Below, piece by piece: positions 1 to 18,359 of a stretch of 64,000 bases of DNA. A program made the position numbers and the translations under genes. Position 1 is the stretch's first letter, and each line of letters starts with the position of its first letter. The notes under the pieces were generated by a model. That model was not told the DNA's origin. It made no database searches and worked only from the letters and a program-made list of their open reading frames with translations. The DNA comes from Bacillota bacterium (GTDB lineage Bacteria; Bacillota; DTU025), in NCBI GenBank assembly GCA_019136685.1, contig JAGVTS010000124.1, positions 17,460-81,459 of the forward strand. Direction: 5' to 3'.

Positions 1-82
1 CCCAGATCCGACTGTCGGGCGATGGACGAATGCCGAGGCATGTCGTGCCGGACCGAGTGGGAACGGAGGTTGGCGGTAGGCA

Positions 83-544
83 ATGGAACACGGCTGCGCC
101 GCGTACTTGGCCCCTGTCATGCTGGGGGGCATGGATTACGACAAACACTCATGGGTTGCGCAGATACAAGGCTGGCTGGCATCCCTTCCCGGCGACTCTC
201 AGCTACCGGCAGGGGCATTCTGCGAGTTGATGCGCGAAGCTTTTGAGGCTGACAGAGCTGGGATGTACCTGAAAAGCCTCTCGATTCTCAGCAAGGCTGA
301 GCGACTCCTGGCCGATTGCGACGCGCTCGATTCCTTCGTCTACGCGATGGGGGGCACTCCGCGCAGGATTCCGACTGATCCCGGCGGCGGCCCGCGGAAC
401 ACGCAACCCGGCCCCACCGGGGGAGGCGGCACGAGCTCGGGTAACCCGTGCGACTCCATGAATGATGATACGTGTTCGCAGTGTATCGGCGGCTTGTGCC
501 TTTACGGCATTCTGAATGCAATATGCGGAGGCGGGTGCTCATAA
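83..544 (+). CDS. hypothetical small protein (153 aa) with Gly-rich linker and Cys-rich hydrophobic C-terminal tail
   Basis: Complete ORF with ATG at 83, in-frame stop at 77-79 and GGAGG about 14 nt upstream. C-terminus reads ...GGGPRNTQPGPTGGGGTSSGNPCDSMNDDTCSQCIGGLCLYGILNAICGGGCS, holding 7 of the protein's 11 Cys in the last ~35 aa. First gene of a co-directional coupled operon. No family recognised. Confidence 0.45.
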   Translation: MEHGCAAYLAPVMLGGMDYDKHSWVAQIQGWLASLPGDSQLPAGAFCELMREAFEADRAGMYLKSLSILSKAERLLADCDALDSFVYAMGGTPRRIPTDPGGGPRNTQPGPTGGGGTSSGNPCDSMNDDTCSQCIGGLCLYGILNAICGGGCS

Positions 545-571: not shown

Positions 572-1225
572 ATGGGAAGGAGAATCGTTGTGGAGTTGCC
601 CGATCCGGTCCCGATCACGCAGGATTTCGATGAACCCATGCACGTGCCCGAGCCCGAATCCGACCCAGGCCAGGATGCCTGCAGCGCAGGCACTACCGCG
701 GACATTGGCGCCGTCCAAAGCAAACTGGACCAGCTCATCGCCATGTTCGCCGACAAGATCCAGTACGATGACCAGAAGGAAAAGGCCTTCGCCAGGCTGT
801 ATGATGAACTCGACTCTTTCAAGCGTGACTTTGTGGAGCGCCGGATGAAAGAGGCCTACACCGATCTGATTCTGCTTTACGACAACATTAAGAACTATAC
901 CGGCGACGACGACGTTATGAGGGAAGAAGGCGCTCTCGCGCGAAGGTACCTTGGCTATGTAATGGAAGAACTCACCGAGGTGCTGGCACGGCGTGGGATA
1001 GAACCCATTGTTGCGGGCCCAGGCGTGGGCCCGGCGCAGTGCGGTTTTGATCCGCAGCTTCAGCGAGCCATACGCACGGTGCCCGCCGAATGCCACGGCG
1101 AGGATGGATGCGTGGTCCGCGTGGTGAAGGACGGGTTTACAAAGGACGGTAAGGTGTTCCGCCCACAATCGGTGATCGTGGCACGCTGGACGGAGCCTCC
1201 GAGCCCTCGAGGAGGCGATGTGTAG
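572..1225 (+). CDS. GrpE-like nucleotide exchange factor
   Basis: C-terminal region matches GrpE architecture: dimerisation helix (YLGYVMEELTEVLARRGIEPI), FDPQLQRA (GrpE FDPxxHxA) and beta-domain VVRVVKDGFTKDGKVFRPQSVIVA (GrpE V..V.Q.GY....RPA.V.V). Stop TAG overlaps the GTG start of the next gene (taGTG). Alternative start GTG at 590 follows GGAAGGAG. Confidence 0.65.
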   Translation: MGRRIVVELPDPVPITQDFDEPMHVPEPESDPGQDACSAGTTADIGAVQSKLDQLIAMFADKIQYDDQKEKAFARLYDELDSFKRDFVERRMKEAYTDLILLYDNIKNYTGDDDVMREEGALARRYLGYVMEELTEVLARRGIEPIVAGPGVGPAQCGFDPQLQRAIRTVPAECHGEDGCVVRVVKDGFTKDGKVFRPQSVIVARWTEPPSPRGGDV

Positions 1226-2757
1226 TGTCTCGTGCAATTGGAATCGATCTTGGCACTACGTTTTCGGCTATCGCTGTGCTCAACGAGTTTGGGAAGGCCG
1301 AGATAATCCCGAACGCGGAAGGAGAGCGCGTCACTCCATCTGTTGCGTACTTCGGCGACGATGACTCTGTGGTGGTCGGTACAGTCGCCAAGAATTCTGC
1401 CGTGAGCGATCCGTACAATGTGGTAGAGTTCATCAAACGGCAGATGGGCAATGCCGACTACGTGTTCACCCACGGCGATGCCGAATACGGCCCGGAACAG
1501 ATTTCGGCGCTCATACTCAAGAAGCTCAAGCAAGACGCTGAAAGGCTGCTCGGCGAGGCGGTCAACGATGCGGTGATCACGGTGCCAGCCTACTTCGACG
1601 ATGCACGCAGGCGCGCCACGATAAACGCGGGCAAGATAGCCGGCCTTAACGTGCTCCGCATAATCAATGAGCCCACGGCGGCGGCTTTGGCCTACGGGCT
1701 TACCAATGCGTCAGAGCAGCGGATAATGGTATATGACCTGGGAGGCGGCACGTTCGACGTGACCGTCATGGACGTGGCCAGAGGCGAGATCACGGTCGTC
1801 GCCACTGACGGCGACCACATGCTGGGCGGCAATGACTTCGACGACCAGATAATGCTCTACGTGAACGATGCCTTCAAACGGGAACACGGAGTCGACCTAC
1901 TTCGGGAGGTGGAGGTCCAGCAAGATCTGCGTCAGCGCGCGGAGGCAGCCAAGAAGACGCTGTCTTCTCGTCCATCGGCCAAGATCAGCATGAGCGCCTC
2001 CGGTAGGCGGCTGACGGTCGAACTTACGCGGGAGCAATTCGAACAGATGACCGGTCACCTTCTCGAGCGCACCAAGATGCTTGTCGAGTCGGTGATGAGC
2101 GAGGCCAAAACGGGATGGGGCCAGGTTGACACCGTGCTCTTGGTGGGAGGATCCACGCGCATGCCCATGGTGCCCCAGATGATCGAGCGCATGTCGGGCA
2201 GGGCCCCGAGCCGGGCCATCAACCCCGACGAGGCCGTGGCCATGGGCGCAGCGGTGCAGGCCGGCATCCTCATGGCCCAGAAGGGCGACGCCGCGATACT
2301 TGCTACCGCTGAAGGGCGCAGGCTTGCCAATACTCGAGTGACTGATGTGACGAGCCACGCTTTTGGGATCGTGTTGATGGATGATCGTACGAAAACCGAA
2401 TACAACCAGGTGATGATCGCCAAGAACACGCCGATTCCCCACGAGGTGCATGACCATTTCTATACGATTTCCAACAACCAGGAGCGCGTCAGGTTCGTAG
2501 TGCTTCAGGGGCAGGACCGCGATCCGGCCAACTGCAATACCATCGGCGAGACTGAACTCGAGTTCGACAGGCCCAAACCCAGGGGCTATCCTGTGCGGGT
2601 GACGTACCAGTATGACGCCAACATGGTGATGCACTGCTATATGGAGGATGAAAAGACCGGTCGCATTGCCGAGTTACATATTTCGCAGTCCGGCAGGATG
2701 AGCGACCGCGAAGTTGAGGCCAAGAAGCGGCTCATGGACCGGGTAAAGGTAGACTGA
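1225..2757 (+). CDS. Hsp70-family ATPase, lid-less paralog A (nucleotide-binding domain plus beta substrate-binding domain only, 510 aa)
   Basis: Hsp70 signatures present: IDLGTTFSA, ITVPAYFDD, NEPTAAALAYG, DLGGGTFDV, LLVGGSTRMP, NPDEAVAMGAA, plus SBD-beta motifs IAKNTPIP and PRGYPVRVTYQYDAN. Ends where the alpha-helical lid would begin; no EEVD tail. Translationally coupled to upstream GrpE-like gene. Confidence 0.8.
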   Translation: MSRAIGIDLGTTFSAIAVLNEFGKAEIIPNAEGERVTPSVAYFGDDDSVVVGTVAKNSAVSDPYNVVEFIKRQMGNADYVFTHGDAEYGPEQISALILKKLKQDAERLLGEAVNDAVITVPAYFDDARRRATINAGKIAGLNVLRIINEPTAAALAYGLTNASEQRIMVYDLGGGTFDVTVMDVARGEITVVATDGDHMLGGNDFDDQIMLYVNDAFKREHGVDLLREVEVQQDLRQRAEAAKKTLSSRPSAKISMSASGRRLTVELTREQFEQMTGHLLERTKMLVESVMSEAKTGWGQVDTVLLVGGSTRMPMVPQMIERMSGRAPSRAINPDEAVAMGAAVQAGILMAQKGDAAILATAEGRRLANTRVTDVTSHAFGIVLMDDRTKTEYNQVMIAKNTPIPHEVHDHFYTISNNQERVRFVVLQGQDRDPANCNTIGETELEFDRPKPRGYPVRVTYQYDANMVMHCYMEDEKTGRIAELHISQSGRMSDREVEAKKRLMDRVKVD

Positions 2758-2780: not shown

Positions 2781-3488
2781 ATGGCAAAGGGCGCTATACA
2801 CAGAGTCTGGGCCGACTACGACGTGACTTACGGCGGGCGTCGGGGCATCATGATTCACGCCTCAATGGCAGTTACCGAACGCAGAAGAGCTCAGTCGGAG
2901 CAGGTACTAGTGATCTACTGGTTCTACTACACCGACGGCAAGCCGGTGCCCGGCGTTTCCAGCGAATTCACCGATAGCGGCGGGAACGCCTGCGCCTATG
3001 AGAGTGTTGATACTCCATATCCATCTACAGGCTACGATGATTTCTCGGTGTTCGTTCCCTATGAGGCGCTGAGCCATCAAGGGTCCGGGTCGTTCAGCGC
3101 GTATGCCAACGCAGCCTTGTTCGAAGGCGACACCGTCATAGCCTGGGCGCCTAGGGTGCTGTCGTTCACGTTGACTATGCAGGACGTTCATGAGCACGAG
3201 AAGGGCGGGCAAACGGGGCCCCAACGCACAACCAGGACCACCACTACTACGACTAGCCCGGATACGGGCGGCTCACGCGGTTTCGGCGGCCAGTCGCCTG
3301 CACAAAGATACCGTCGGATGTTCGGCATACCGCCCGGCGCAAGCCCGGCTCAGATCAAGCAGATTTTGGACCGCGAGTATCAGAAGTACAGAGCGCGGGT
3401 GAATAGCCCTGACCTTTCGGCCAGGCAGGAGGCTGACCGAATGATTGTGGAGATAGGCAAGGCCCGGCAGGCGTTGCTGCCGCACTAG
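2781..3488 (+). CDS. hypothetical protein with C-terminal J-domain-like region (SPD in place of HPD)
   Basis: RBS GGAGCGGGAG lies before the ATG. C-terminal ~60 aa (RYRRMFGIPPGASPAQIKQILDREYQKYRARVNSPDLSARQEADRMIVEIGKARQALL) aligns by eye to the J-domain helix II - loop - helix III pattern, with SPD at the HPD position. N-terminal ~140 aa is an unrecognised domain, followed by a Thr-rich linker (RTTRTTTTTTSPD). Lies between two Hsp70 paralogs. Confidence 0.5.
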   Translation: MAKGAIHRVWADYDVTYGGRRGIMIHASMAVTERRRAQSEQVLVIYWFYYTDGKPVPGVSSEFTDSGGNACAYESVDTPYPSTGYDDFSVFVPYEALSHQGSGSFSAYANAALFEGDTVIAWAPRVLSFTLTMQDVHEHEKGGQTGPQRTTRTTTTTTSPDTGGSRGFGGQSPAQRYRRMFGIPPGASPAQIKQILDREYQKYRARVNSPDLSARQEADRMIVEIGKARQALLPH

Positions 3489-3505: not shown

Positions 3506-5038
3506 ATGAAGGCAGTTGGAATCGACCTTGGCACTACGTTTTCGGCTTTGGCTGTGCTGAACGATTATGGCAATCCCGAAATCGTGCCGAACAGGGAGGG
3601 CGAGCGCATCACGCCGTCGGTGGCGCTGTTCGATGCGGAGAACCAGGTCACTGTGGGGGCGATTGCCAAGAACACCGCGGTAAGCGATCCGGAGAACGTG
3701 GTCGAGTTCATCAAGAGGCAGATGGGCAACCCGGACTTCGTTTTCGTCCACAGCGGCAGGGAGTTCCGCCCGGAAGACATCTCTGCGATGATCATCAAAA
3801 AGCTGAAGGCCGATGCCGAGACGCTTCTCGGCGCCGAGCTTCCCAGCGCAGTAATAACAGTGCCGGCCTATTTCGACGACGCCCGCAGGCAGGCTACCAT
3901 GAATGCGGGAAGAATCGCTGGGTTCAACGTGCTCGGGATAGTGAACGAACCTACAGCGGCGGCGCTGGCCTACGGCATGAGCAACCCCGATGTTCGTCAG
4001 CGGATCCTCGTGTACGACTTGGGCGGCGGCACCTTCGACGTGACGCTTATGGAAGTGACGGAGGGCAAGATCCGCGTGCTTGCCACCGACGGCGACCATC
4101 AGCTGGGCGGCAAGGACTTTGACGACAAGATAATCATGTACTGCAACGACGAGTTCAAGCGCGAGCACGGCATCGACCTTCTTGACGACCTTGAGGCTCT
4201 GCAGGACTTGCGCCAGCGGGCCGAGTCGGCCAAGAAGACTCTCTCGTCCAGAGACTCAGCCAAGATCACCATAAGCGCCCAGGGAGCGAGGCTCACTGTA
4301 GAGATGGCCCGCAAGCAGTTCGAGGAGATGACCGCAGAGTTGCTTGTACGTTCGGAAATGCTCCTGGATGCGGTGATGGGGGCGGCGGAACTAGGGTGGG
4401 CCGATGTCGATCAGGTGCTCCTGGTCGGGGGCATGACTCGCATGCCGGCGGTTATGGAGATGATTCGCAGGGTGAGCGGTAAGGAGCCCACTCTATCAGT
4501 CAACCCAGACGAAGCAATCGCCCTGGGGGCAGCCATATATGCCGGCATCATACTGGCCGGTCGGGGCGATCCTGAGGTGGTATTGAGCGAAGCAGGGCGC
4601 CGGCTGCGCGATACCGTAATCGAGGACGTCACGAGCCACAGCTACGGTGTGCTGCTTGTCGACTCCAAAACAGGGAGCGACATCAATGAGATAATGATCG
4701 CCAAGAACTCCCCCATCCCGGCCGCGCGGACCGCCACGTACTACGTACATGAAGATGGGCAATCGTGCGTGGAACTCGTGGTGCTGCAGGGCGAAGATAG
4801 AAACCCGGCCAACTGCAATGAGATCGGCAGGGTGGTGTTGCCGCTCGGCGGCTCGAAACCCCGCAATTACCCCATAGAAGTAACCTACGAGTACGACGTC
4901 AACATGATAATGCATGCGACCATCAAGGATCCGCAGACGGGGGCCCAAAAGTCGCTCCAGATTACGCAGCAAGGACGGCTGACCAACGCAGAGGTTGAGG
5001 AAAAGCGGGAGACCATGCAAGAAGTCGAGGTAGTTTAA
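3506..5038 (+). CDS. Hsp70-family ATPase, lid-less paralog B (510 aa)
   Basis: Same length as and colinear with paralog A, roughly two-thirds identical by eye. Same Hsp70 motifs: IDLGTTFSA, DLGGGTFDV, LLVGGMTRMP, NPDEAIALGAA, IAKNSPIP, PRNYPIEVTYEYDVN. RBS GGGGGAGG upstream. Stop TAA overlaps the ATG of the next gene (TAATG). Confidence 0.8.
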   Translation: MKAVGIDLGTTFSALAVLNDYGNPEIVPNREGERITPSVALFDAENQVTVGAIAKNTAVSDPENVVEFIKRQMGNPDFVFVHSGREFRPEDISAMIIKKLKADAETLLGAELPSAVITVPAYFDDARRQATMNAGRIAGFNVLGIVNEPTAAALAYGMSNPDVRQRILVYDLGGGTFDVTLMEVTEGKIRVLATDGDHQLGGKDFDDKIIMYCNDEFKREHGIDLLDDLEALQDLRQRAESAKKTLSSRDSAKITISAQGARLTVEMARKQFEEMTAELLVRSEMLLDAVMGAAELGWADVDQVLLVGGMTRMPAVMEMIRRVSGKEPTLSVNPDEAIALGAAIYAGIILAGRGDPEVVLSEAGRRLRDTVIEDVTSHSYGVLLVDSKTGSDINEIMIAKNSPIPAARTATYYVHEDGQSCVELVVLQGEDRNPANCNEIGRVVLPLGGSKPRNYPIEVTYEYDVNMIMHATIKDPQTGAQKSLQITQQGRLTNAEVEEKRETMQEVEVV

Positions 5039-6183
5039 TGGAGGCAGGGGCAGGGACGGAGCGGGGCGCACGTACCCGGGCGCTTTACGAGCAACTGCTG
5101 GCGCCCGTGGCCCGGCAAGTCGACGCGGAACTGACGAATGAAGGGCACAACCTTCCGGCTGAACTGCGCGACATGTACGACTACGCTGTCGGCGGCGGTA
5201 TGAGATTCAGGCCGTGCCTGATGTACCTGGCGTACCTTGTGTGTAGTGCGGGCATGGGCGGGGAGTGCGGGCGTGATGGAGGCGATGGCTGCGGCAGCTG
5301 CATTGGCCTCGATAACCTGATTCAGCTTGCGTCAGCTGTGGAGTTGCTCCACAAAGCGTCGTTGGTTCACGACGACCTCATCGACGGCGACACTCTTCGC
5401 AGGGGGCGGCAGTCGTTTCACGAGGCATTCGGGAGCGAGCGCGCCGTAGTAATGGGTGACTTGCTAGTGGCAATGGCTCACGATGTGGTTGAGCGGATGC
5501 GTTCGGTCTTGCCGACCGGAGTGTACTCCCAAATCCGCTCCCGGTTCAACAAGGCCCATATCGACCTGTGCCGAGGTGAGTTGCTGGAGTTGGTCGCTTC
5601 GCTTTGCGAGCGCGCTCTGGCACGCGATTACGTGGATAGGGTGATCGAAGGAAAGACCGCGTCGCTGATGGAGCAGTCGATGGCCATGGGGGCGATCATC
5701 GCGGGCGCGCCCGCGGCTCGTGTGGATGCCTTGGCACGCTACGGACGGTGCATGGGGTTCGTGTTCCAGACTATCAATGATATAAACAACCTGACAGGGT
5801 TCGACCTAGGCGTCAAGGGGCAGGCCATGACAGACCTGGCGCTGGGCCGTGTGGGATACCCTGTTCTGGGCCTTGCGATGATCGCGGGCGCTGAAGAGAC
5901 TGGCCTCTTTGCACGGGCCCCGGGGATTAGGCGAGTTGAGGGCTCGGGCGACGCCCTGCGTGAGCTGGTTCAGGGGGGGCAGCTGTGCGTGTGGCTCGAG
6001 GGGATAATATGCGAATATGCGGGCCGAGCGCGACAGGCGCTGGAGGCCCTGCCGGAATGTGGCGCGCGCGACGCCCTGGACGCGATAGGACGCGAGATGT
6101 TCGAATCGTGGTTCTGGAATCCCGAAGCGCGCGTCGATAGCCTGGGAGGCGGATGCAGTGAAGAGTCTCCGCCCGCTAACTGA
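5038..6183 (+). CDS. polyprenyl synthetase (trans-isoprenyl diphosphate synthase) family protein with degenerate second Asp-rich motif
   Basis: GGGMRFRP (IPPS GGKRxRP), intact first Asp-rich motif LVHDDLIDGDTLRRGRQ, GKTASL. Second motif reads FQTINDINNL where FQxxDDxxD is expected. Cys/Gly-rich insertion (GGECGRDGGDGCGSCIG) before the first motif. Coupled to the upstream Hsp70 gene. Confidence 0.65.
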   Translation: MEAGAGTERGARTRALYEQLLAPVARQVDAELTNEGHNLPAELRDMYDYAVGGGMRFRPCLMYLAYLVCSAGMGGECGRDGGDGCGSCIGLDNLIQLASAVELLHKASLVHDDLIDGDTLRRGRQSFHEAFGSERAVVMGDLLVAMAHDVVERMRSVLPTGVYSQIRSRFNKAHIDLCRGELLELVASLCERALARDYVDRVIEGKTASLMEQSMAMGAIIAGAPAARVDALARYGRCMGFVFQTINDINNLTGFDLGVKGQAMTDLALGRVGYPVLGLAMIAGAEETGLFARAPGIRRVEGSGDALRELVQGGQLCVWLEGIICEYAGRARQALEALPECGARDALDAIGREMFESWFWNPEARVDSLGGGCSEESPPAN

Positions 6184-6760
6184 GTCGGCCCTTGCCGCGG
6201 CTGTGTGTGTAGTTGTGTGGGCGCTGTCACTGGGTATTCCGGGGCTGGGGGGCTATGTGAGATACATGACGCCGAGCTTTATCGCGATCGTGGGAGCGCG
6301 CCACGGAGCGAGATGGTCGCTGGCGGCGTGCGCAGTGGCGAGCGCCGGTGTAGCGATCACGCTGGGGCCGACCCAGTTCCTCATCTGCCTCCTTCTGGGC
6401 GCCCCCATGGCGGTGCTTCTTCCCATGATGAACCGGCGCGCCAAGCCTGCGCCCTGGTGGGCGCTGACGTCAGTCATCTACGCCGTGGCCGTTACAGTTC
6501 TGGGCTGCGGGTTGGCCGCGCTCTACGGTGCAGGACTTCGCGACTATGGGTCGGCGACTGCGTCAGCCAACTACGCTGCTTTGGGCGGCATGTGGGCTCG
6601 GCTAGGCGTGGAGCGGAGCGAGCTTGCCGCGTTCGCCGGCCGATCAGCGTGGGTCATCGTCCCGGGAGTCGGCGTCGTCAGCGGAGTCATGATGTACATG
6701 ATCAACGTAGTACCGTATAGAATCGGCCTCAGAACCCTCGACCGGACGCGCCGCCGGTAG
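6158..6760 (+). CDS. polytopic membrane protein, unknown function
   Basis: 200 aa, about 5 predicted hydrophobic helices, basic C-terminus. Overlaps the end of the preceding gene by 26 nt in another frame. Last gene of the co-directional block. Confidence 0.4.
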   Translation: MKSLRPLTESALAAAVCVVVWALSLGIPGLGGYVRYMTPSFIAIVGARHGARWSLAACAVASAGVAITLGPTQFLICLLLGAPMAVLLPMMNRRAKPAPWWALTSVIYAVAVTVLGCGLAALYGAGLRDYGSATASANYAALGGMWARLGVERSELAAFAGRSAWVIVPGVGVVSGVMMYMINVVPYRIGLRTLDRTRRR

Positions 6761-7238
6761 CGCCGGCCCTTGCGCCTCCGGCGGTCGCAGCCTGTGCAAA
6801 TGCCGATAGATCCACATCGGCAGATGATATCCGCACCATGGCTTGTCCAGGCTGAATAGTTATCCCCGCCATGTCCAGCGACCTTAGCGCCCCGCGGCTT
6901 GCCTGAACGAGATCGATCGTTATCACGCCGCGACCCAGGTAGCTTACGCCCTGGGGCAGGCGCGAGGAGATCCGGTTGATGAGCACATCCATAGGACCGG
7001 TTCCCAGCCCCATCGGACCGGATACACGCACTGTCAGGCTGGCGCCGCGCGCGGCGACCACCTCTACTCGGAAAGACGGATGAATGGGCACAGGCGCGCG
7101 GACGGTAGTGTCGACAACCACTACCCCTTGTTCGAATCTCAGACCCCTCACAACGAACTCGGGAGACGATGCAACGCTGGCCACGACCTGCTTCACTTCC
7201 CGATCGTCCACAGCAAGCACCAGCGACTCCATTAGCAT
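6729..7238 (-). CDS. hypothetical protein (possible PilZ-like beta-barrel protein)
   Basis: 169-aa ORF with reasonable protein-like composition. Weak resemblance to PilZ/YcgR-type domains (RxxxR ... D.S..G-like spacing). Not confidently assigned. Confidence 0.35.
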   Translation of the reverse strand: MLMESLVLAVDDREVKQVVASVASSPEFVVRGLRFEQGVVVVDTTVRAPVPIHPSFRVEVVAARGASLTVRVSGPMGLGTGPMDVLINRISSRLPQGVSYLGRGVITIDLVQASRGALRSLDMAGITIQPGQAMVRISSADVDLSAFAQAATAGGARAGATGGASGRGF

Positions 7239-7245
7239 CTCAAGC

Positions 7246-8250
7246 TCACTCCTTTCGGGTTCTCGCGCTCAGCAGGCGCCTTACCCGGGCGTCCAGCCCG
7301 AGCAGGATGATGTTCTCTACTATGGGGCGATAGCGGTGCAGCGTCAGCTGCGACAACGCGTTGCGCGCTTCCACATTGCATCGGGCGATCACGTACGACA
7401 GGGCATCTCCCGTGCCGCGCGAGAGCTCAGCGGAATCTTGTTCTGCCATCATGCAGGCGCGCAGGCCGTTAAAAGCCCCGCGTCTCACGTCGCGCGGTAA
7501 GTCCTCCAGGCAGTCGCCTAGATAGACCATGCGACCCACGGCTCGGCCCAGGCGCGCCAAGGATACACAACCCTCATCCAGGCCGGCCAGAATGCCTGTG
7601 TACGCCAACACGTGCGCAAGCCCGTCGGCCGTGGGCGCGGTGAGTTCGTCGAACGTGATACTTCCCGGCGCGGCGCTTGCCTCAGCTTCCAGCTCGGCCA
7701 GGCGATCGTCTGCCTGCAGCAGCGGGGCGATATCGAAAGAGCGCTCAGCGAGAACATGCCGGGCCTTGGCAAACTGTCGGCGGCCCATGGCTCTGGCCGG
7801 GCGGGCTAGGAGCGATCCGTCGCGCACCGAGTCCAGGCTCTTCAGTTCTGCCATGCACACTGTGAGCGCAGCGCCCAGCGACATGAAGTCCTCATGCTCA
7901 CTGATAATGGCGAACCTGCGGAATGCCGACACAGGGCAGAAAGTCCTCCGAAAAGACGGGTCGGGGTCTGCCTGAGCCGACATGAGCAGGACTAGCAAAG
8001 TAGACTCGAAATTGGTGAGCGCGCGGCAGAGTGTGCCGTACTCCCGTGCAAGCGCGAAACAAAGCCCACAGTAGTGGGCTGTGTAGTGATGGCTTTGCCT
8101 GAGTGTAAGGTCGAGCTTCTGAGGCCTTACATATCCAAACAACCGGGCACTCTCCCGCCGACGTGATCTGCTTCCCATCGAGAGTTTTCTCCCTGCCGAC
8201 CGCTTGTTCCTCCATAGTCGGCGGGATCCGGATGATAGAGCAAGAAGCAC
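7246..8250 (-). CDS. hypothetical protein with conserved Y-V-R-P ... HHYxxHYCGLC motif
   Basis: 334-aa ORF with N-terminal FGYVRPQKLDLTLRQSHHYTAHYCGLCFAL Cys/His motif, and a C-terminal region rich in regulatory-looking helices. Family not confidently recognised. Confidence 0.45.
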   Translation of the reverse strand: MLLALSSGSRRLWRNKRSAGRKLSMGSRSRRRESARLFGYVRPQKLDLTLRQSHHYTAHYCGLCFALAREYGTLCRALTNFESTLLVLLMSAQADPDPSFRRTFCPVSAFRRFAIISEHEDFMSLGAALTVCMAELKSLDSVRDGSLLARPARAMGRRQFAKARHVLAERSFDIAPLLQADDRLAELEAEASAAPGSITFDELTAPTADGLAHVLAYTGILAGLDEGCVSLARLGRAVGRMVYLGDCLEDLPRDVRRGAFNGLRACMMAEQDSAELSRGTGDALSYVIARCNVEARNALSQLTLHRYRPIVENIILLGLDARVRRLLSARTRKE

Positions 8251-8260
8251 CTGGGCATGA

Positions 8261-9409
8261 CTAGCCGTTCGGCCCGGTGGTCGAGGCGGGCGAGCCTGGA
8301 GGAGGCGCAGGGCACACCAGGATCGTGCCGGGGGCTATTGTCCTGGGATCCGTTATCCCGTTCATGGCGAGTATCTCGCGCATCCTTTCGTCAGTAGCCC
8401 TGCCGTAGAGGCGTTTGGCGATCACCGCCACCGACTCGCCCGGCGCCACTGTTACGGTTACAGTGCCGGGCGCGCCGGGCTCGGCAGTGGGCCGCGAGGC
8501 ATTGCCCTGGGCAGTGGCTTGCTGGGCCTGAGGGGTGCGCTGCGGCGTAGCCGGCAACTTAGCCTCAGGCGTAACCTTGGGCCGTGGTTCTGCCTGTGGC
8601 TCAGGCCCGGCCTGCAGCTGGGGATGAGCCTGCAACTCAGCTCGGGGCTCAGGCTGTGGTTGGGCTGCGAGCTGTTCTACCCGGCTGCGCGGCGTCCAAA
8701 TCTGTGCCGCCAGAGCGATTGCGGCGATGATCAGGGCGATGGAAGCGAGGCGCAGGGCCAGTGATGTGTCGTTGCTCGGGCGCTGGAGCAGCCAGCGCAA
8801 TCTGCGCAGCCAGGTCATGGGCGAGAGCTTGGCACACTGGCGCAGTCCGTCACCGGCTTGCCTGCGCGACGCCTGGGCCGCCGACCCAGACAGCGACTGC
8901 CCTGAGGATTCGCCGACGGGATCAAACATGTAGTACCCTGGGAATGGCAGCAGCGTTTCTCCGTCCATGTAGAAGAACGACGCCTGTTGCCTCACTGCAT
9001 CGACGATCAGCGCAACCCCTGCTCCCAAAGGTGAGAGCGACTTATGCACCATGGCGTCCTCTTCGGACGCCGACACGCCCGAGCCAGAGTGTGTGTGGAA
9101 CCATCCTATGATCTCTCTGCCTGCGTGTGAGGCCTTGGCCTCCCGGCGCAGGTTGTCAGACAGGGCAATTAGGAGTCCCGGAGGTTCTGCCCTGAGCGGG
9201 ACGTCCGGCAACTCCACTGTGTCGGACACCATGATGATGATTCCATCACTATCACTGGTCAGCCTGCCCACGAGAAGCCCGGCGCGGTCAGCCTGCTGTG
9301 AGCCTGCACTGCCCGTCTTGCCCAGTAGGCCTTCGATTACTGCACGACTCGCCATCACCCTGGACGGCATGCCCCGGGTCTGTACCCTCTCGATCAATGC
9401 GATCACCAT
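8261..9409 (-). CDS. JAB/MPN (JAMM) metalloprotease domain protein with TM segment and C-terminal LysM domain
   Basis: JAMM motif HTHSGSGVSASEED (H-x-H-x7-S-xx-D). Central hydrophobic helix (LASIALIIAAIALAAQIW). Pro/Gln/Ala-rich linker. C-terminal LysM-like GESVAVIAKRLYG...ILAMNGITDPRTIAPGTILVCP. Confidence 0.7.
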   Translation of the reverse strand: MVIALIERVQTRGMPSRVMASRAVIEGLLGKTGSAGSQQADRAGLLVGRLTSDSDGIIIMVSDTVELPDVPLRAEPPGLLIALSDNLRREAKASHAGREIIGWFHTHSGSGVSASEEDAMVHKSLSPLGAGVALIVDAVRQQASFFYMDGETLLPFPGYYMFDPVGESSGQSLSGSAAQASRRQAGDGLRQCAKLSPMTWLRRLRWLLQRPSNDTSLALRLASIALIIAAIALAAQIWTPRSRVEQLAAQPQPEPRAELQAHPQLQAGPEPQAEPRPKVTPEAKLPATPQRTPQAQQATAQGNASRPTAEPGAPGTVTVTVAPGESVAVIAKRLYGRATDERMREILAMNGITDPRTIAPGTILVCPAPPPGSPASTTGPNG

Positions 9410-9597: not shown

Positions 9598-10182
9598 ATG
9601 GGAGGATTGGAGGACCGCATGAACAGAGATGCAAGCAACACGCGCCCACTGCGGTGGGTCGCGCTTCTGATAGTAGGATTGGTCGCGGTTGCGCTGCTCC
9701 TATGGGCGTTATCGCCCGGCGGCGACCGCCTGGTCGCGGCCAGGAACGCCGAGCAACTGGTTGGAGCCGTTGCCCCGGATTTCCAGCTAAAGACCATCGA
9801 CGGCAAGCAGATTGCGCTTCGGGACCAACCTCGCTACGCGTATGTGCTTGACTTCTGGACCGTCAGCTGTCCACCGTGTCATTCGCTCGCTCCCGAGCTG
9901 CAGAGCATCCACAAGAAGTATGGCTTCCATGGAGTGCGCGTCGTGGGGGTCAACCTTGCGGATAGCGCGACCGCTATCAAGAAGTACATGGAGAAGAATG
10001 GCTACACCTACATCCAGACGACTGACAGAGGAGCCGTCGCCAATGCCTACGGGATTTTCGCTACGCCTACCGTGGTTGTAATCGATCGCAAGGGCATTGT
10101 GCGAGATGTCATGGTTGGCTTGGGTCCGGGATGGGAAGGTCGTCTCGAAAGCATTGTGAAGACGGTTGCGGGGGAGAAGTGA
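9598..10182 (+). CDS. TlpA/ResA-like membrane-anchored thiol:disulfide oxidoreductase (thioredoxin fold)
   Basis: N-terminal TM anchor, thioredoxin-like active site WTVSCPPCHSL (CxxC), and AhpC/TSA-like fold features. RBS GGAGGATTGGAGGA upstream. Confidence 0.75.
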   Translation: MGGLEDRMNRDASNTRPLRWVALLIVGLVAVALLLWALSPGGDRLVAARNAEQLVGAVAPDFQLKTIDGKQIALRDQPRYAYVLDFWTVSCPPCHSLAPELQSIHKKYGFHGVRVVGVNLADSATAIKKYMEKNGYTYIQTTDRGAVANAYGIFATPTVVVIDRKGIVRDVMVGLGPGWEGRLESIVKTVAGEK

Positions 10183-10186
10183 GAGC

Positions 10187-10352
10187 TGTGTCGCGGATCG
10201 CGCAGGCGCGTTCAAGATCAGGCCCGGAGCTATACGCAGTGCTCATCATCGCTGGAATCGCGCTAGTGGCGGTGGGTGTCGCCTCCGGCGATTTCTGGGC
10301 CATTCTGGCCAATGCTAGGATGATCTGCCTGTCATGTATAGGCATTCAGTAG
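10187..10352 (+). CDS. small hydrophobic peptide with C-terminal CxxC (about 55 aa)
   Basis: GTG start 5 nt after the TlpA stop. Sequence VSRIAQARSRSGPELYAVLIIAGIALVAVGVASGDFWAILANARMICLSCIGIQ has one TM helix plus CLSC. Could be spurious. Confidence 0.3.
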
Positions 10353-10461
10353 AGTCGACCTCCGTCCGCCGCCGCTGCCCAGGGCGCCCCGAGCCCCGCA
10401 CTGAGCAGCTACGTCCGGGCGAAAAGCGTCAAGTACAAGTACCGGATAACGAGTGTGAGGA

Positions 10462-11274
10462 ATGACGATACACGGCAAGAGATCGAGGCGACGCACCGCA
10501 ATCCAGATCATTGCCGCGGCTGCTGCCAACTCCGGCCTGCCGGCTCTGAAGTTCTGCCCGTATCCCGGGCTGAACTGCTATGCATGCCCGCTCGCGTCTT
10601 TTGCATGCCCAATGGGTTCGCTTCAGAACTTCCTGTCCCTTCGGAGGTTTCCCTTTGCCATAGCAGGTTTCTTCATCACTATTGGAGCCACGTTCGGCCG
10701 GGCTGTGTGCGGCTGGGCGTGTCCGTTCGGCTTGTTCCAGGATCTACTGGCAGGTCTTGGGCCTCGGCACAAGCTGGTGCGCAGCAACCGCTGGACGTGG
10801 ATGCGCTACGCTGTGCTGATTGGGCTGGTAGTGATCGGGGCATTCGCCACAGGGTCGCCCATCTTCTGCAAGCTATGCCCCGCGGGCACGCTGGGCGCCG
10901 GGATACCACAGGTGATACTGAGGCCGTCTCTCCGGCAGATGATCGGTCCGCTTTACTGGATCAAGATCGGGCTTCTGGCTGCACTGGTTCTGGCTGCATT
11001 CTTCGTAAAGAGGCCGTTCTGTCGCTTCCTCTGCCCGCTGGGCGCAGTGTACTCGCCGTTTAACAGGGTGAGCCTGATGCGCATGCGAGTAGACTCCTCC
11101 GCATGTACCAGGTGCAACGCGTGCAAGGGTGTATGCCCAGTTGACATTGCGATCTATGAAGACCCTGATTCGGACGCCTGCATACGGTGTCTTGAATGTA
11201 CCCGCTGCCCGGCCGTCTCCGTATCATACGGGCCGACGAAATCCGAATATCCCTTGCACACTGCGGGAAACTAA
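10462..11274 (+). CDS. membrane-bound polyferredoxin, NapH/MauN-like 4Fe-4S binding protein
   Basis: Multiple TM helices interleaved with Cys clusters (CYACP...CP, CGWACPFG, CKLCPAG, CRFLCPLG) and two C-terminal ferredoxin motifs CTRCNACKGVCP and CIRCLECTRCP. Confidence 0.7.
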   Translation: MTIHGKRSRRRTAIQIIAAAAANSGLPALKFCPYPGLNCYACPLASFACPMGSLQNFLSLRRFPFAIAGFFITIGATFGRAVCGWACPFGLFQDLLAGLGPRHKLVRSNRWTWMRYAVLIGLVVIGAFATGSPIFCKLCPAGTLGAGIPQVILRPSLRQMIGPLYWIKIGLLAALVLAAFFVKRPFCRFLCPLGAVYSPFNRVSLMRMRVDSSACTRCNACKGVCPVDIAIYEDPDSDACIRCLECTRCPAVSVSYGPTKSEYPLHTAGN

Positions 11275-13619: not shown

Positions 13620-15650
13620 GTGCCTGATTTCCAGCTCAAGTCGGACTTCACTCCGACGGGAGATCAGCCTAGGGCCATAGATGAGCTCGTTCAGGGCGTG
13701 CTCTCCGGCATGCGGGGGCAGGTGCTTCTGGGCGTAACGGGCAGCGGCAAGACATTTACCATGGCCAACGTGATCATGCGTCTGGCCCGCCCTGCGCTGG
13801 TCATTGCGCACAACAAGACGCTCGCGGCGCAGCTGGCTGCGGAGTTTCGAGAGTTCTTCCCGAATAACGCAGTCCACTATTTCGTCAGCTACTACGACTA
13901 CTACCAGCCGGAGGCGTATATACCCCAGTCTGACACCTACATCGAGAAGGATGCGCAGATAAATGACGAGATTGATAGGATGAGGCACGCGGCCACAGCG
14001 GCACTGGTCGAGCGGCGCGATGTTGTCATCGTGGCCAGCGTGTCCTGCATATACGGGCTAGGCATGCCCGAGGAATATCTAAAGCAGGCGGTGGTTGTGA
14101 GGCGCGGCGAGGCGTCTGACCGCGACCGCCTTCTGCGCAAGTTGGTCGCCATTCAGTACAGCAGAAACGACATAGGAATTGCTCGCGGCACGTTCAGAGT
14201 GCGCGGCGATGTGGTGGAGATAGTCCCTGCGAGTGGAGAACAAGCGATCAGAATCGAGTTCTTTGGCGACGAAATCGACCGTATCACCGATGTTGACCTC
14301 ATAACCGGAGAAATGCTGGGCGAGAGGGAATCTGCTTTCATCTATCCAGCGTCTCACTGGGTGACCAACCAGGAGCGGATGCAGGCTGCGATCGCAACAA
14401 TTGAGGAAGAACTGGAGGCTAGGCTCGCGGAGTTGAAAGGCGCAGGCAAGCTCCTTGAAGCTCAGCGACTGGAGCAGCGCACTCGATTCGATCTGGAGAT
14501 GATGCAGGAGGTAGGGTACTGCTCGGGGATCGAGAACTACTCACGCCACCTGGCCGCGAGAGAGGCGGGCAGCGCTCCTGCGACTCTCATCGACTACTTC
14601 CCCGACGATTACCTCATGTTCATCGACGAGTCGCACGTGACGGTGCCTCAGATACGCGCGATGTACAATGGCGATCGGTCGCGCAAAGAGAGCCTTGTGG
14701 AATATGGTTTTAGGCTGCCCTCTGCCTACGATAATCGGCCCTTGCGTTTTGACGAGTTCACGCGGCGCGTCAACCAGGTGATCTTCGTATCCGCCACTCC
14801 GGCCGAATGGGAAAGATCCATGAGTGGTCAAGTAGTGGAGCAGGTCATACGCCCGACCGGCCTGGTAGATCCGGCGGTTGAGCTCAAGCCCGTGCGGGGG
14901 CAGGTCGACGACTTGATAGGCCAGATCCGTCAGACGGCGGACTGCGGATACCGGACGTTGGTGACAACGCTCACCAAGAAGATGGCCGAGGACCTCACGG
15001 ACTACCTCCGCGAGCTGGGGATCAGAGTGAGGTATCTGCACTCTGAAATTGACACGTTGGAACGGATCGAGATACTCAGGGGGCTACGCCTGGGCGAGTT
15101 CGATGTTCTGGTGGGCATAAACCTGCTCCGCGAGGGTCTGGATCTGCCTGAGGTTGGGCTCGTGGCTATCCTCGACGCCGATAAAGAAGGGTTCCTGCGG
15201 TCGTCAACGTCTCTCATACAGACTATTGGCAGGGCCGCCCGGAATGTGGATGGACGCGTCATCATGTATGCCGATGAGGTCACAAGATCCATGCGCGAAG
15301 CCATAGGTGAAACTGACCGGCGTCGTGCCATACAGATAGCGCACAACAAGACGTGGGGTATCACCCCCGAGTCTATCAAGAAGGCAGTCCGCGACCTATC
15401 CGAGATACAGCGTGCCGCAGGCGCCGAGGGCACGCGCGCGACCGCGGCCCGAGGCGCGGCAGGCGCAATGGGCGGGGCTGACATAGGGGCTCTGCAGGAA
15501 GTCGAGGGGATGGACGAGCGAGAGCTCGCCAGGCTCATCAAGAACCTAGAAGAGCAGATGAAGAAGGCAGCCGGCCTGCTTGAGTTCGAGCGGGCGGCGG
15601 AAATACGGGATCGCATCAGAGATCTTAGGCGGAGGTTCGTCCAGCTTTGA
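13620..15650 (+). CDS. uvrB: excinuclease ABC subunit B
   Basis: GVTGSGKTF Walker A, DESH helicase motifs, C-terminal UVR domain ([19 protein letters not shown]). 676 aa, GTG start. Confidence 0.95.
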
Positions 15651-16885
15651 GCAAAGACAAGATTGTCATCCGAGGTGCGCGCGAGCACAACCTCAAGAAT
15701 ATCGATGTGGAGATTCCCCGCGACAAGCTGGTGGTAGTGACCGGCCTGTCGGGTTCGGGCAAGTCGTCGCTTGCCTTCGATACGATATATGCGGAGGGGC
15801 AGCGGCGCTACGTGGAATCGCTGTCAGCCTATGCGCGTCAGTTTCTGGGCCAGATGAACAAGCCGGACGTGGATTACATAGAGGGCTTGTCTCCTGCGAT
15901 CTCCATAGACCAAAAAGCGGCCGGCAGAAACCCGCGGTCCACCGTGGCCACGGTCACTGAGGTTTACGACTACATGAGGCTGCTGTACGCCCGAATAGGG
16001 GTACCTCACTGCCCCGAGTGCGGTCGCGAGATCACCCAGCAATCGGTAGATCAAATCGTCGACAGGATCATGGACATGCCGGAGGCGACACGCATTCAGG
16101 TATTGGGCCCGGTTGTCCGTGGTAAGAAGGGCGAGCACAAGAAGGTTCTCGACGATCTCAGGCGCGATGGGTTCGCTCGTGTACGGGTCAACGGAGAGGC
16201 ACGCGAACTCACCGACCAGATTGACCTGGAGCGCTACAAGACCCACAGCATAGAGGCTATTGTGGATAGGCTGATCGTAAGGCCCGGCATACAGCGCAGG
16301 TTGGCTGATTCGCTGGAAACGGCCTTGAAACTCGGAGGCGGCCTGGTACTGGTAGACGTGGTTGGCAGCGGCGATATCGTCTTTTCGGAGACGCTGGCCT
16401 GCCCTGACTGCGGGCTCAGTTTCGGGGAGTTGCAGCCCAGGCTGTTCTCGTTCAACAGCCCGTACGGCGCGTGCCCGGCCTGCTCAGGCTTGGGCGTGAG
16501 CATTGAGTTCGACCCGGAGCTGATCTTCGATGCCGGCCGCTCCATTGACGACGGCGCTGTCTTGCCCTACAACCGAAACGGGGTCATAGCCGACTTCTAT
16601 GTCGGCCGGATACGTGAAGTGTCCCGGGTGAAGGGGATAGATACCACGGCCCCCTGGTCGTCGTTGCCTGAATGTGCCCGCGAGATGCTGAAACACGGGT
16701 GCGGAGAGGAACGGCGCGCGGCTAAAGCCGGAAGCGCTCGCCGTGACAGTTGGCGGGAAATCCATTGCCGAAGTCACCTCGATGTCCACGGCGGATGCTC
16801 TGGCCTACTTCGAGGGCTTCAGCCGGCAGCTTACAGAACGCGAAACGCTCATAGCCAAGCAAGTCTTGAAGGAAATTCGGGCTAG
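15647..16885 (+). CDS. uvrA: excinuclease ABC subunit A, N-terminal portion (gene disrupted by frameshift/deletion)
   Basis: [14 protein letters not shown] Walker A, Zn-finger CPECG...CPDCG...CPAC, LPYNRNG. UvrA identity is lost after ...LKHGCGEE around 16710 and the frame runs into non-UvrA sequence. Confidence 0.8.
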
Positions 16886-18359
16886 GTTAGGCTTTCTCAG
16901 TAACGTTGGGCTGGACTACCTCACCCTTGACCGTGAGGCGGGAACCTTGTCGGGCGGCGAGGCTCAGCGGATCAGGCTGGCCACCCAGATCGGGTCGAGC
17001 CTGGTAGGAGTGCTCTACATTCTGGACGAGCCGTCTATCGGGCTGCACCAGCGCGACAATGCACGATTGATCGCTACGCTGAAAGACCTGCGCGACTTGG
17101 GTAACACGCTCATTGTAGTGGAGCACGACGAGGAGACTATCAGATCGGCTGACTATGTAATCGATATAGGTCCGGGCGCCGGCGCCCATGGCGGCGAAGT
17201 GATCGCCGCCGGCACTGTCGGCGAAGTTGAGAGGAATCCGGCTTCCCTGACAGGGCAGTATCTTTCAGGCGCTCGAAGCATCCCTGTGCCGCCGGCGCGA
17301 AGAGAGCCCAACGGGAAGTCGCTGGTGATAGTGGGCGCTCGCGAGCATAACCTCAAGAACCTGGATGTGTCGATACCTCTGGGGTTGTTCGTGTGTGTGA
17401 CGGGCGTTTCCGGATCCGGGAAGAGCACTTTGATCAACGAGATACTCCACGCGCGGCTGGCGCGCGACCTGAACCGGGCGTATGCCAGGCCCGGCGCGCA
17501 CGACGACATACGGGGCACTGAGTACCTCGACAAGGTGATCGGCATCGACCAGTCGCCGATAGGGCGGACGCCAAGGTCCAACCCGGCCACCTACACCGGC
17601 GTGTTCGACTTCATCAGAGAGGTATTCGCGCGAACGACCGAGGCCAGGGCAAAAGGCTATAAGCCCGGCAGGTTCAGTTTCAACGTCAAGGGCGGCCGAT
17701 GTGAGGCGTGCCGAGGCGACGGCATTATCAAGATAGAGATGCATTTCCTACCCGACGTGTACGTTCCGTGCGAGGTGTGCAGGGGCGCACGGTACAACAG
17801 AGAGACCTTGGACGTGAAGTACAAGTCCAAGAGCATTGCAGACGTGCTTGCCATGAAGGTCGACGAGGCACTGGAATTCTTCTACAACATCCCGAGGATC
17901 CGGCGTAAGCTGCAGACTCTCTATGACGTCGGTCTCGGCTATATCCAGCTGGGCCAGCCGGCTACGACTCTCTCAGGGGGCGAAGCCCAGCGCGTGAAAC
18001 TCGCCACAGAGCTGTCGCGGCGCACCAATGGAAAGACACTGTATATACTGGATGAGCCCACTACTGGGCTGCACTTCGCGGACGTCGGTAAGCTCTTGGA
18101 GGTACTGCAGAAACTGGTAGACGGCGGCGATACCGTGCTGGTGATCGAGCACAATCTGGATGTCATCAAAACTGCTGACTACATCATAGACCTTGGCCCT
18201 GAAGGCGGCGACAAGGGCGGATGCTTGATCGCCGCGGGCACTCCGGAGCAAGTCGCAGCCACGCCCGGATCATACACCGGGCAATTCCTGACTAGGATTC
18301 TGCCGACTGAGGTGAAATCCGAGCACGGGCTGGAGGCGATGACCGGTGCCCTTGGATGA
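16743..18359 (+). CDS. uvrA: excinuclease ABC subunit A, C-terminal portion (continues in a different frame)
   Basis: [12 protein letters not shown]..., [17 protein letters not shown], second Walker [11 protein letters not shown], Zn-finger CEACRGDG...CEVCRGARY, second ABC signature [12 protein letters not shown]. Frame differs from the N-terminal part. Confidence 0.8.

Follow-up and report, generated by a model that had tools for sequence, protein, structure and literature searches.

A Cys-tailed small protein inherited together with a ComQ-like synthase homologue in uncultured Bacillota, a candidate prenylated membrane anchor

The window analysed here, a stretch of 64,000 nucleotides (nt) from the metagenome-derived assembly of a Bacillota bacterium (GCA_019136685.1, contig JAGVTS010000124.1, positions 17,460 to 81,459), carries near its 5' end a small gene (83..544, + strand) encoding a protein of 153 amino acids (aa) with a Cys-rich C-terminus, followed by a cluster of chaperone and isoprenoid-synthase-like genes. 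The gene starts with ATG, an in-frame TAG stop at 77-79 lies directly 5' of this start, and a putative Shine-Dalgarno sequence GGAGG (65..69, + strand), 13 nt 5' of the ATG, sits within the stretch GAATGGAGGTTGGCGGTA, which is kept across clade A of the family described below. The protein can be divided into four segments, all on the + strand, beginning with an N-terminus under little constraint (residues 1-45, 83..217), in which inspection by eye revealed no signal-peptide features. It is followed by a conserved helical core (residues 46-90, 218..352) with the family-wide motif A-D-x-[AE]-G-M-Y-L-x-S ... L ... SF..AM, and by a short linear motif, which reads RRIPTDP here and RPADPGD elsewhere in the family, with a subsequent low-complexity Gly/Pro-rich linker (residues 91-121, 353..445). 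The last segment (residues 122-153, 446..541) consists of the acidic patch DSMNDDT and the hydrophobic Cys tail CSQCIGGLCLYGILNAICGGGCS. A reading made earlier from the sequence alone had described a Pro/Gly-rich segment of about 30 aa, which is indeed present (residues 90-121), Gly accounting for 11 and Pro for 6 of its 32 residues, and a Cys-rich tail of about 35 residues with 7 Cys; the tail it quoted, NPCDSMNDDTCSQCIGGLCLYGILNAICGGGCS, is Cys-rich as claimed, its length being 33 residues and its Cys number six (C123, 131, 134, 139, 148 and 152). With a Cys share of 1.39% across 18 confident proteins of the window, the probability of finding at least six Cys in 33 residues is 5.9e-6. The core pattern of the tail, C-x4-C-x8-C-x3-C, spans nt 482-538. 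Hydrophobicity of the protein peaks in the tail, where the highest score for a hydropathy window of 19 residues is 1.55, compared with 0.9-1.9 over the family. No further open reading frame (ORF) with a Cys tail was found in the 64-kb window.

An AlphaFold2 (AF2) model predicts a helical bundle for residues 9-90, with a predicted local distance difference test (pLDDT) of 70-83 for the bundle including the conserved core. Foldseek gave no match of this model to the PDB at E<=0.001, and the only hit of a PDB profile search with the small protein was a non-significant one to a designed TPR (E=0.1); equally, no Pfam TPR match, which would have suggested a TPR co-chaperone, was obtained for the small protein. 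The idea that the small protein supplies an Hsp70 lid in trans was dropped because Foldseek gave no match of the AF2 model to an Hsp70 lid. A DnaJ-type zinc finger (CxxCxGxG) received no Pfam match at E<=10 in the small protein, which contains a single CxxCxGG that is absent as a conserved feature from clade C.

Comparison of four diverged copies of the gene showed an overall ratio of nonsynonymous to synonymous polymorphism (pN/pS) of 0.15-0.26, distributed as 0.4-0.6 in residues 1-45, 0.05-0.12 in residues 46-90, 0-0.21 in the linker and 0-0.14 in the tail, with many synonymous changes in the three strongly constrained regions. Linker and tail, in which selection against amino-acid change is strongest, are constrained no less than the N-domain, and ORF 83-544 is a genuine protein-coding gene with a functional tail. 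Together with the association with the downstream genes, this bears out the proposal of the sequence-only reading that a real, operon-linked small protein is encoded here. Across greater distances the pattern C-x4-C-x8-C-x3-C recurs in clade A, clade C and the locus L054 at only 31-39% overall identity, with the equally spaced tail cores CIGGLCLYGILNAICGGGC in the window, CLKGACLGLLLQAICEGGC in clade C and CYQGVCLGLLLQAICRGGC in L054, and a comparison of clade C with L054 shows the tail to be the best-conserved part of the protein. Since the tail pattern is conserved, the objection that it might lack conservation among homologues, which the sequence-only reading had raised against itself, does not hold. 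In clade B, the tail is shortened to C-x4-C-x4-C-x2-C. In every lineage an acidic patch precedes the tail, the tail is the peak of hydrophobicity (Kyte-Doolittle averages of 1.3-2.4 over 15 residues) and a Cys is found at most 1-4 residues from the C-terminus, and some divergent tails carry CCC or CC runs. Linker sequence is invariant inside clade A and between clades retained in composition only, being G/P-rich, P-rich, composed of GGNY repeats or S/N-rich according to clade.

The family is small. A word-indexed search retrieved eight relatives with 64-93% identity to the small protein, and 10 family representatives only were retrieved when 1.84 billion representative proteins were searched exhaustively with a HMMER profile, while the GTDB genomes contain six loci, all in metagenome-assembled genomes labelled "Bacillota bacterium" or "uncultured Clostridia". 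The source samples of the loci are biogas, anaerobic-digester and fermentation metagenomes. Neither the small protein nor 12 relatives matched a model of Pfam, NCBIfam or PADLOC, in the case of Pfam and NCBIfam even at E<=10. All members, 126-256 aa long, share the helical N-domain, the short linear motif, the low-complexity linker, and the acidic patch with the hydrophobic Cys-rich C-terminus. As an observation in its own right, lineage D (L036:1303-2761, L023:27-1334) encodes two Cys-tail paralogues in tandem, with near-identical N-domains and different tails, which are separated by a small DUF4236 zinc-ribbon gene and both located ahead of GrpE.

In the window, the small gene is followed 27 nt past its stop by the gene for a GrpE-like nucleotide-exchange factor (572..1225), with no terminator found between the two, and subsequently by the genes for an Hsp70 (paralogue a, 1225..2757, 510 aa), a J-like co-chaperone (2781..3488, 235 aa), a second Hsp70 (paralogue b, 3506..5038, 510 aa, approximately 60% identical to paralogue a), a trans-isoprenyl-diphosphate-synthase-like (IPPS-like) protein (5038..6183) and a DUF2232 multi-pass membrane protein (6158..6760), the final gene of this + strand unit. 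On the - strand there follow a 169-aa conserved protein with no assigned family (6729..7238), which is found in clades A, A' and B, a DUF5685 protein (7246..8250, with the likely true start, MFGY..., near 8142) and a JAB/MPN metalloprotease with a LysM domain (8261..9409), in which a putative transmembrane segment and a Pro-rich spacer separate the two domains. This gene order is retained in clades A, A' and B. There the small gene leads its operon, as the sequence-only reading had it, and is preceded by a conserved upstream block; in clade C, L054 and L035 the Cys-tail gene is instead located between a lone Hsp70 gene and the J-like gene, and in the locus L038 directly after the IPPS-like gene, so that the leading position is not general. 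The distance to the IPPS-like gene equally differs, with four genes in the window and one gene in clade C. The upstream block is a 45-nt non-coding sequence, CTTGAAGGAATCCCCGTATGGTTGGAGAATCCGAAAATGTACG (L002:9358-9402), approximately 130-170 nt 5' of the small gene and just beyond the 5' end of the window, which contains the direct repeat GGAATCC / GAGAATCC and shows no variation in clade A and hardly any in L007, also where the upstream gene is a different one. No known RNA element (Rfam), sigma-70 promoter or terminator was found in the region upstream of the small gene, and the block may be an operator or an alternative-sigma promoter. Two further candidates were considered and rejected. 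An Rce1-like CPBP protease, encoded next to some clade C loci only, is outside the core because it is absent in L031 and clade A, and the conflict systems of GTPase and Hsp70 described by Kaur et al. (PMC7159879) differ from the present cluster, which has no GTPase.

The chaperone genes, usual at Cys-tail loci and absent at one (L038), encode an unusual set. Both Hsp70 paralogues end at residue 510 without the helical lid and the C-terminal tail of DnaK, paralogue a covering positions 1-507 of 625 of the DnaK model, and clade C possesses a single Hsp70 copy. The J-like protein is composed of an N-terminal Ig-like beta-sandwich with conserved Cys, a Thr/Gly linker predicted to be disordered and a divergent J domain, modelled by AF2 as three helices, whose profile matches DnaJ J domains at E=0.003; its signature tripeptide is SPD in the window, NPD in clade C, SAD in L054, SPP in L035 and HPD in clade B only. 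As a side observation, the top PDB match of its N-terminal half is the Wzt carbohydrate-binding domain, with RhoGDI and NPC2 among the lower matches. A small Cys-bearing protein encoded alongside a dedicated Hsp70 and a J protein recalls IscU-HscA-HscB, and the sequence-only reading had named, as one of two alternatives, a metal or Fe-S scaffold client of a dedicated Hsp70 system. According to this explanation, the tail would bind a metal or an Fe-S cluster as scaffold or client of a specialised Hsp70/J pair, which is consistent with the conservation of four to seven Cys within a short stretch of sequence in a lineage of strict anaerobes and with the conserved Cys also present in DUF5685 and the J-like N-domain. 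On the other hand, no IscU, NifU or other metal-site family match was obtained at E<=10, an LPPVK-type motif is absent and no cysteine desulfurase is encoded in the flanks, whereas IscU-HscA-HscB is characterised by the NifU/IscU fold or motif, three conserved Cys and a desulfurase. Furthermore, the Hsp70s are nearer to DnaK (490 bits) than to HscA (371 bits) and accompanied by a GrpE, which HscA does not use, the spacing of the Cys depends on the clade, and the hydrophobic, Gly-rich tail is unlike known cluster-binding loops. A metal-binding role thus appears quite improbable.

DUF5685, which accompanies the cluster in most lineages, L038 included, was not found within approximately 5 kb downstream or 2.8 kb upstream in L054. 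The protein contains five invariant Cys, including those of Y-C-G-x-C, and the motif D-C-L-x-D-L-x-x-D; as a side observation, a PTA..GL..V...TA segment ahead of this motif gives a non-significant alignment to the GKTA...FQ..DD region found in prenyl synthases. When searched for as a hidden homologue of isoprenoid synthases, DUF5685 reached a probability of 0.3% in hhalign against the IPPS-like alignment and gave an empty PDB profile search. DUF5685 could be a second isoprenoid-fold enzyme.

The partner most telling for the function of the tail is the IPPS-like protein. Its first Asp-rich motif (FARM) is intact, with DDLID in the window and DDL[IV]D in all clades, and the position of the second Asp-rich motif (SARM) is occupied not by DDxxD but by an invariant ND[ILM]NN[L/F]T-x-x-[DE], in the window NDINNLTGFD. 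An NDxxx "pseudo-SARM" sets ComQ, the enzyme that prenylates ComX, apart from true chain-elongating synthases (PMC5331326); ComQ needs NDxxx or GDxxx at the second motif, and replacement of N by D abolishes prenyl transfer (PMC5331326). The IPPS-like protein combines the fold of a trans-IDS (trans-isoprenyl diphosphate synthase) with a DDxxD FARM and such a pseudo-SARM, as is distinctive of the ComQ/ComX type, while the family models assigned it to polyprenyl_synt in general and gave no ComQ-specific match. Small residues (A, S) occupy positions -5 and -4 ahead of the FARM, and long-chain synthases are the top PDB matches, both of which agree with a spacious pocket for the prenyl chain. The sequence-only reading had pointed to a resemblance between the tail and a CGSCIG string in the IPPS-like protein. 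This string does exist, in the Gly/Cys-rich insertion SAGMGGECGRDGGDGCGSCIG (residues 70-92, before the FARM); the insertion, however, is restricted to clade A, its counterpart in the nearest other clade (L007) is devoid of Cys and the remaining clades lack it, wherefore the resemblance is judged to be a coincidence.

When a metagenome collection was scanned for DNA encoding F-Q-x-[IV]-N-D-x-N-N-[LF]-T, 19 loci with a pseudo-SARM enzyme were retrieved, and a Cys-tail gene was present in 11/11 loci with enough flank to judge. Reciprocally, every long-enough locus found via the small protein or the J-like protein contained the IPPS-like gene. Because Hsp70, GrpE and J genes are missing in L038 and DUF5685 was not found in L054, the pseudo-SARM enzyme and the Cys-tail protein are the only invariant pair of the cluster.

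Locus L038 is informative as it has no Hsp70, GrpE or J gene, yet has kept both members of this pair. The pseudo-SARM gene is directly followed by the gene for a 256-aa Cys-tail protein, whose start overlaps its stop, and DUF5685 comes next. The N-domain of the 256-aa protein is homologous to that of the small protein (hhalign probability 89%, E 2e-6), with the core of residues 46-90 as the sole part of the small protein still recognisable, and next come a finger of the Prok-RING type, a zinc ribbon and a Pro-rich linker ahead of the tail GCCGWIGVGLVGLFCCGVIESGGC. As a true transmembrane segment, the L038 tail (CCGWIGVGLVGLFCCGVI) is more convincing than that of the window. With a RING finger and a zinc ribbon between N-domain and tail, the tail is better understood as the anchor of a protein than as the core of a peptide. 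As further observations on this locus, a ubiquitin-like set adjoins the pseudo-SARM enzyme and DUF5685 on the upstream side (L038:962-10946, minus strand). It comprises a YukD-like ubiquitin-like protein, an E1 (ThiF) and an E2 (UQ_con), trypsin-like proteases, a protein with a transmembrane segment and an FHA domain, and two JAB proteins, of which one is the homologue of the JAB-LysM protein of the window; the RING finger of this set is fused to the Cys-tail scaffold.

These domains bear directly on the explanation first offered for the architecture of the small protein, a leader, the GG of VYAMGG and a Cys-rich core, namely that of a precursor of a ribosomally synthesised and post-translationally modified peptide (RiPP), with the N-domain as a long leader and the core modified, cleaved and exported. 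Conservation of the N-part and diversification of the tails in some lineages, including the tandem paralogues of lineage D, would agree with a precursor, as would a ComQ-like enzyme in the cluster, the DUF2232 membrane protein alongside and the CPBP or JAB protease near some loci. The VYAMGG is indeed present in the protein; it is, however, not conserved as a cleavage site, as AMGG is limited to clades A and B and replaced by AMAG in L007, AMAEW in P0026 and EMARSA or ELARGA in clade C. In the genes of the window and in the 10-kb flanks of the relatives, no component of the leader-family, SCIFF, RiPP recognition element (RRE), radical-SAM, YcaO, Lan or C39-ABC type was detected, thus neither a maturase nor a C39 peptidase-transporter, and NHLP/Nif11 and other leader or precursor models gave no match at E<=10 to 13 family members. 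SCIFF/ranthipeptide and NHLP/Nif11 precursors share with the small protein a short C-terminal stretch with six Cys after a Gly-Gly in a Clostridia-type organism, but the small protein is much longer, has a structured N-domain and is without a radical-SAM maturase; there was no NCBIfam match of the small protein to SCIFF/ranthipeptide models (TIGR03973 for the SCIFF precursor), and the neighbouring genes include none of the radical-SAM kind. The proteases encoded nearby vary from clade to clade. With an unconserved GG, no leader family, maturase or transporter, a tail that equals the N-domain in constraint and is the best-conserved part when clade C is compared with L054, and folded RING and zinc-ribbon domains ahead of the tail in L038, a classical RiPP precursor is the least likely of the explanations considered.

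An alternative that retains the tail as part of a protein dispenses with lipidation. The tail would then be an unmodified anchor that inserts into the membrane, or an aggregation-prone, degron-like client, in either case looked after by the private Hsp70/GrpE/J machinery, while the IPPS-like protein, DUF2232 and DUF5685 would serve an unrelated end, the synthesis or handling of a membrane isoprenoid. The peak of hydrophobicity in the tail, the transmembrane-like CCGWIGVGLVGLFCCGVI of L038, the position of the Cys-tail gene among Hsp70, GrpE and J genes in five to seven lineages and the basic residues for binding of isopentenyl diphosphate (IPP) in the IPPS-like enzyme are all compatible with it. 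The hydrophobic stretch is, however, short (15-19 residues) and Gly-rich with acidic rather than basic flanks, and this explanation accounts neither for the conservation of the Cys nor for the invariant non-canonical second motif of the synthase-like enzyme nor for the pairing of enzyme and tail without Hsp70 in L038. We regard it as unlikely, if less so than metal binding.

Prenylation, already raised by the sequence-only reading, looks the most promising lead. Motifs and co-occurrence suggest, tentatively and somewhat short of an even chance, a tail that anchors the protein to the membrane by means of prenylation and an N-domain that offers a platform for docking. The 153-aa protein would be a cytoplasmic protein with two working parts, the helical N-domain, which together with the linear motif (RRIPTDP / RPADPGD) might serve for docking, and the hydrophobic tail resembling a cysteine string. 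We infer that the tail is the substrate of the co-inherited trans-IDS-like enzyme, which would lipidate it at Cys as acceptor, most likely by S-prenylation and possibly with DUF5685 as a helper, and that the lipidated tail would anchor the protein in or on the membrane. The lidless Hsp70 or Hsp70s, GrpE and the J-like protein might hold the hydrophobic tail in solution or present it, or the N-domain might recruit them. Docking by the N-domain would on this view extend to varied protein-handling machines, usually Hsp70/GrpE/J and once RING/E1/E2; in one distant lineage the scaffold of N-domain and tail bears a RING finger and belongs to a cluster for ubiquitin-like conjugation.

Several points weigh against a prenylated anchor. 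The proposal is built on motifs and co-occurrence, and the link to Hsp70 is one of gene neighbourhood only. In the IPPS-like protein, basic residues typical of true chain-elongating synthases are still in place (GGxRxR, RRG, GKT), and with these IPP-binding residues it might produce a lipid that serves some other end. Trp is the residue modified by all trans-IDS-like peptide prenyltransferases that have been characterised (PMC13290415). The tail has no conserved Trp; Trp is absent from the last 35 residues in 10/11 tallied members, the exception being P0026, and beyond this tally it occurs only in the tail of L038. Three lineages have other Cys-dense hydrophobic tails with quite different spacing, the distance of the last Cys to the C-terminus is variable, a CaaX consensus is absent, and AF2 assigns a pLDDT <50 to everything outside residues 9-90, tail included.

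Among known systems, ComQ/ComX (PalQ/PalX) of Bacillota is the closest in kind. Common to both are an enzyme of trans-IDS fold with an intact first Asp motif and ND-x-x-x as the second and, as proposed here, modification of a small substrate near the C-terminus. Enzyme and putative substrate genes are four genes apart in the window and one gene apart in clade C, while in L038 they are directly adjacent and overlap, with the enzyme gene first, as in the order of comQ and comX. Unlike here, ComX is a precursor of 53-58 aa with Trp as acceptor and with ComP/ComA as partner, whereas the proteins of the present family are 126-256 aa long with a folded N-domain and a Cys as the proposed acceptor, no ComP/ComA partner is present, and Hsp70/GrpE/J, DUF2232 and DUF5685 are encoded instead. 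The Cys within the last 1-4 residues of an otherwise soluble protein resembles the CaaX and Rab substrates, for which, however, there is here neither the CaaX consensus nor any alpha/beta protein-prenyltransferase gene found, with an Rce1-like CPBP protease near some clade C loci only.

A partner of Hsp70 that is anchored to the membrane via a lipidated, Cys-dense hydrophobic segment is known from eukaryotes in the cysteine-string protein DnaJC5, which acts with Hsc70 and SGT, and in the farnesylated Ydj1, and DnaJC5/Hsc70/SGT resembles the cluster described here in that a small helical adaptor is combined with an Hsp70 and a J protein. There is no sequence homology to this eukaryotic system, in which the Cys string is part of the J protein and not of a helical adaptor and receives palmitate from a DHHC enzyme instead of, as proposed here, a prenyl group from a synthase-like enzyme. 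A more far-reaching version, which we consider doubtful, would see in the cluster the first bacterial prenylation of protein cysteines, carried out by a ComQ-like transferase on a Cys-string adaptor with Hsp70/GrpE/J as escort, the anchor being reused by the RING/E1/E2/JAB system. As part of the escort, the Ig-like beta-sandwich of the J protein would belong to the general fold class of prenyl-binding chaperones of the RhoGDI type.

The literature searched contains nothing on the small-protein family, the gene cluster, the function of DUF5685 or a link between RING fingers and polyprenyl enzymes. Protein family and gene cluster are thus new relative to this literature, while the kind of system would be that of ComQ/ComX-type prenylation by a synthase-like enzyme, to which the proposed Cys-string acceptor, the protein-sized substrate and the dedicated Hsp70 set would be additions. 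If true, Cys as a lipid acceptor would be unprecedented in bacteria, the chemistry of the ComQ-like enzyme class would be extended, a new protein-lipidation tool accepting long prenyl donors might become available and a bacterial counterpart of lipid-anchored Hsp70 co-chaperones would be at hand. The link to RING/E1/E2/JAB hints that membrane tethering by the Cys-tail module has been reused by different protein-handling machines. As the family is rare and derived only from uncultured digester Bacillota, its general reach is limited.

Beyond the cluster, two minor observations concern the flanking part of the window. In clade A only, the cluster is followed at 9598-11274 by genes for a membrane-anchored redoxin of the thioredoxin/AhpC type and a Fer4_5 polyferredoxin-like membrane protein. 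Further downstream, uvrA is apparently split between 15647 and 18359 into two overlapping ORFs in different frames, of which 15647-16885 encodes the UvrA interaction and DNA-binding domains and 16743-18359 the ABC domain; the split, either a frameshift or an assembly error, is flanked by an intact uvrB (13620-15650) and by uvrC (18346-20196).

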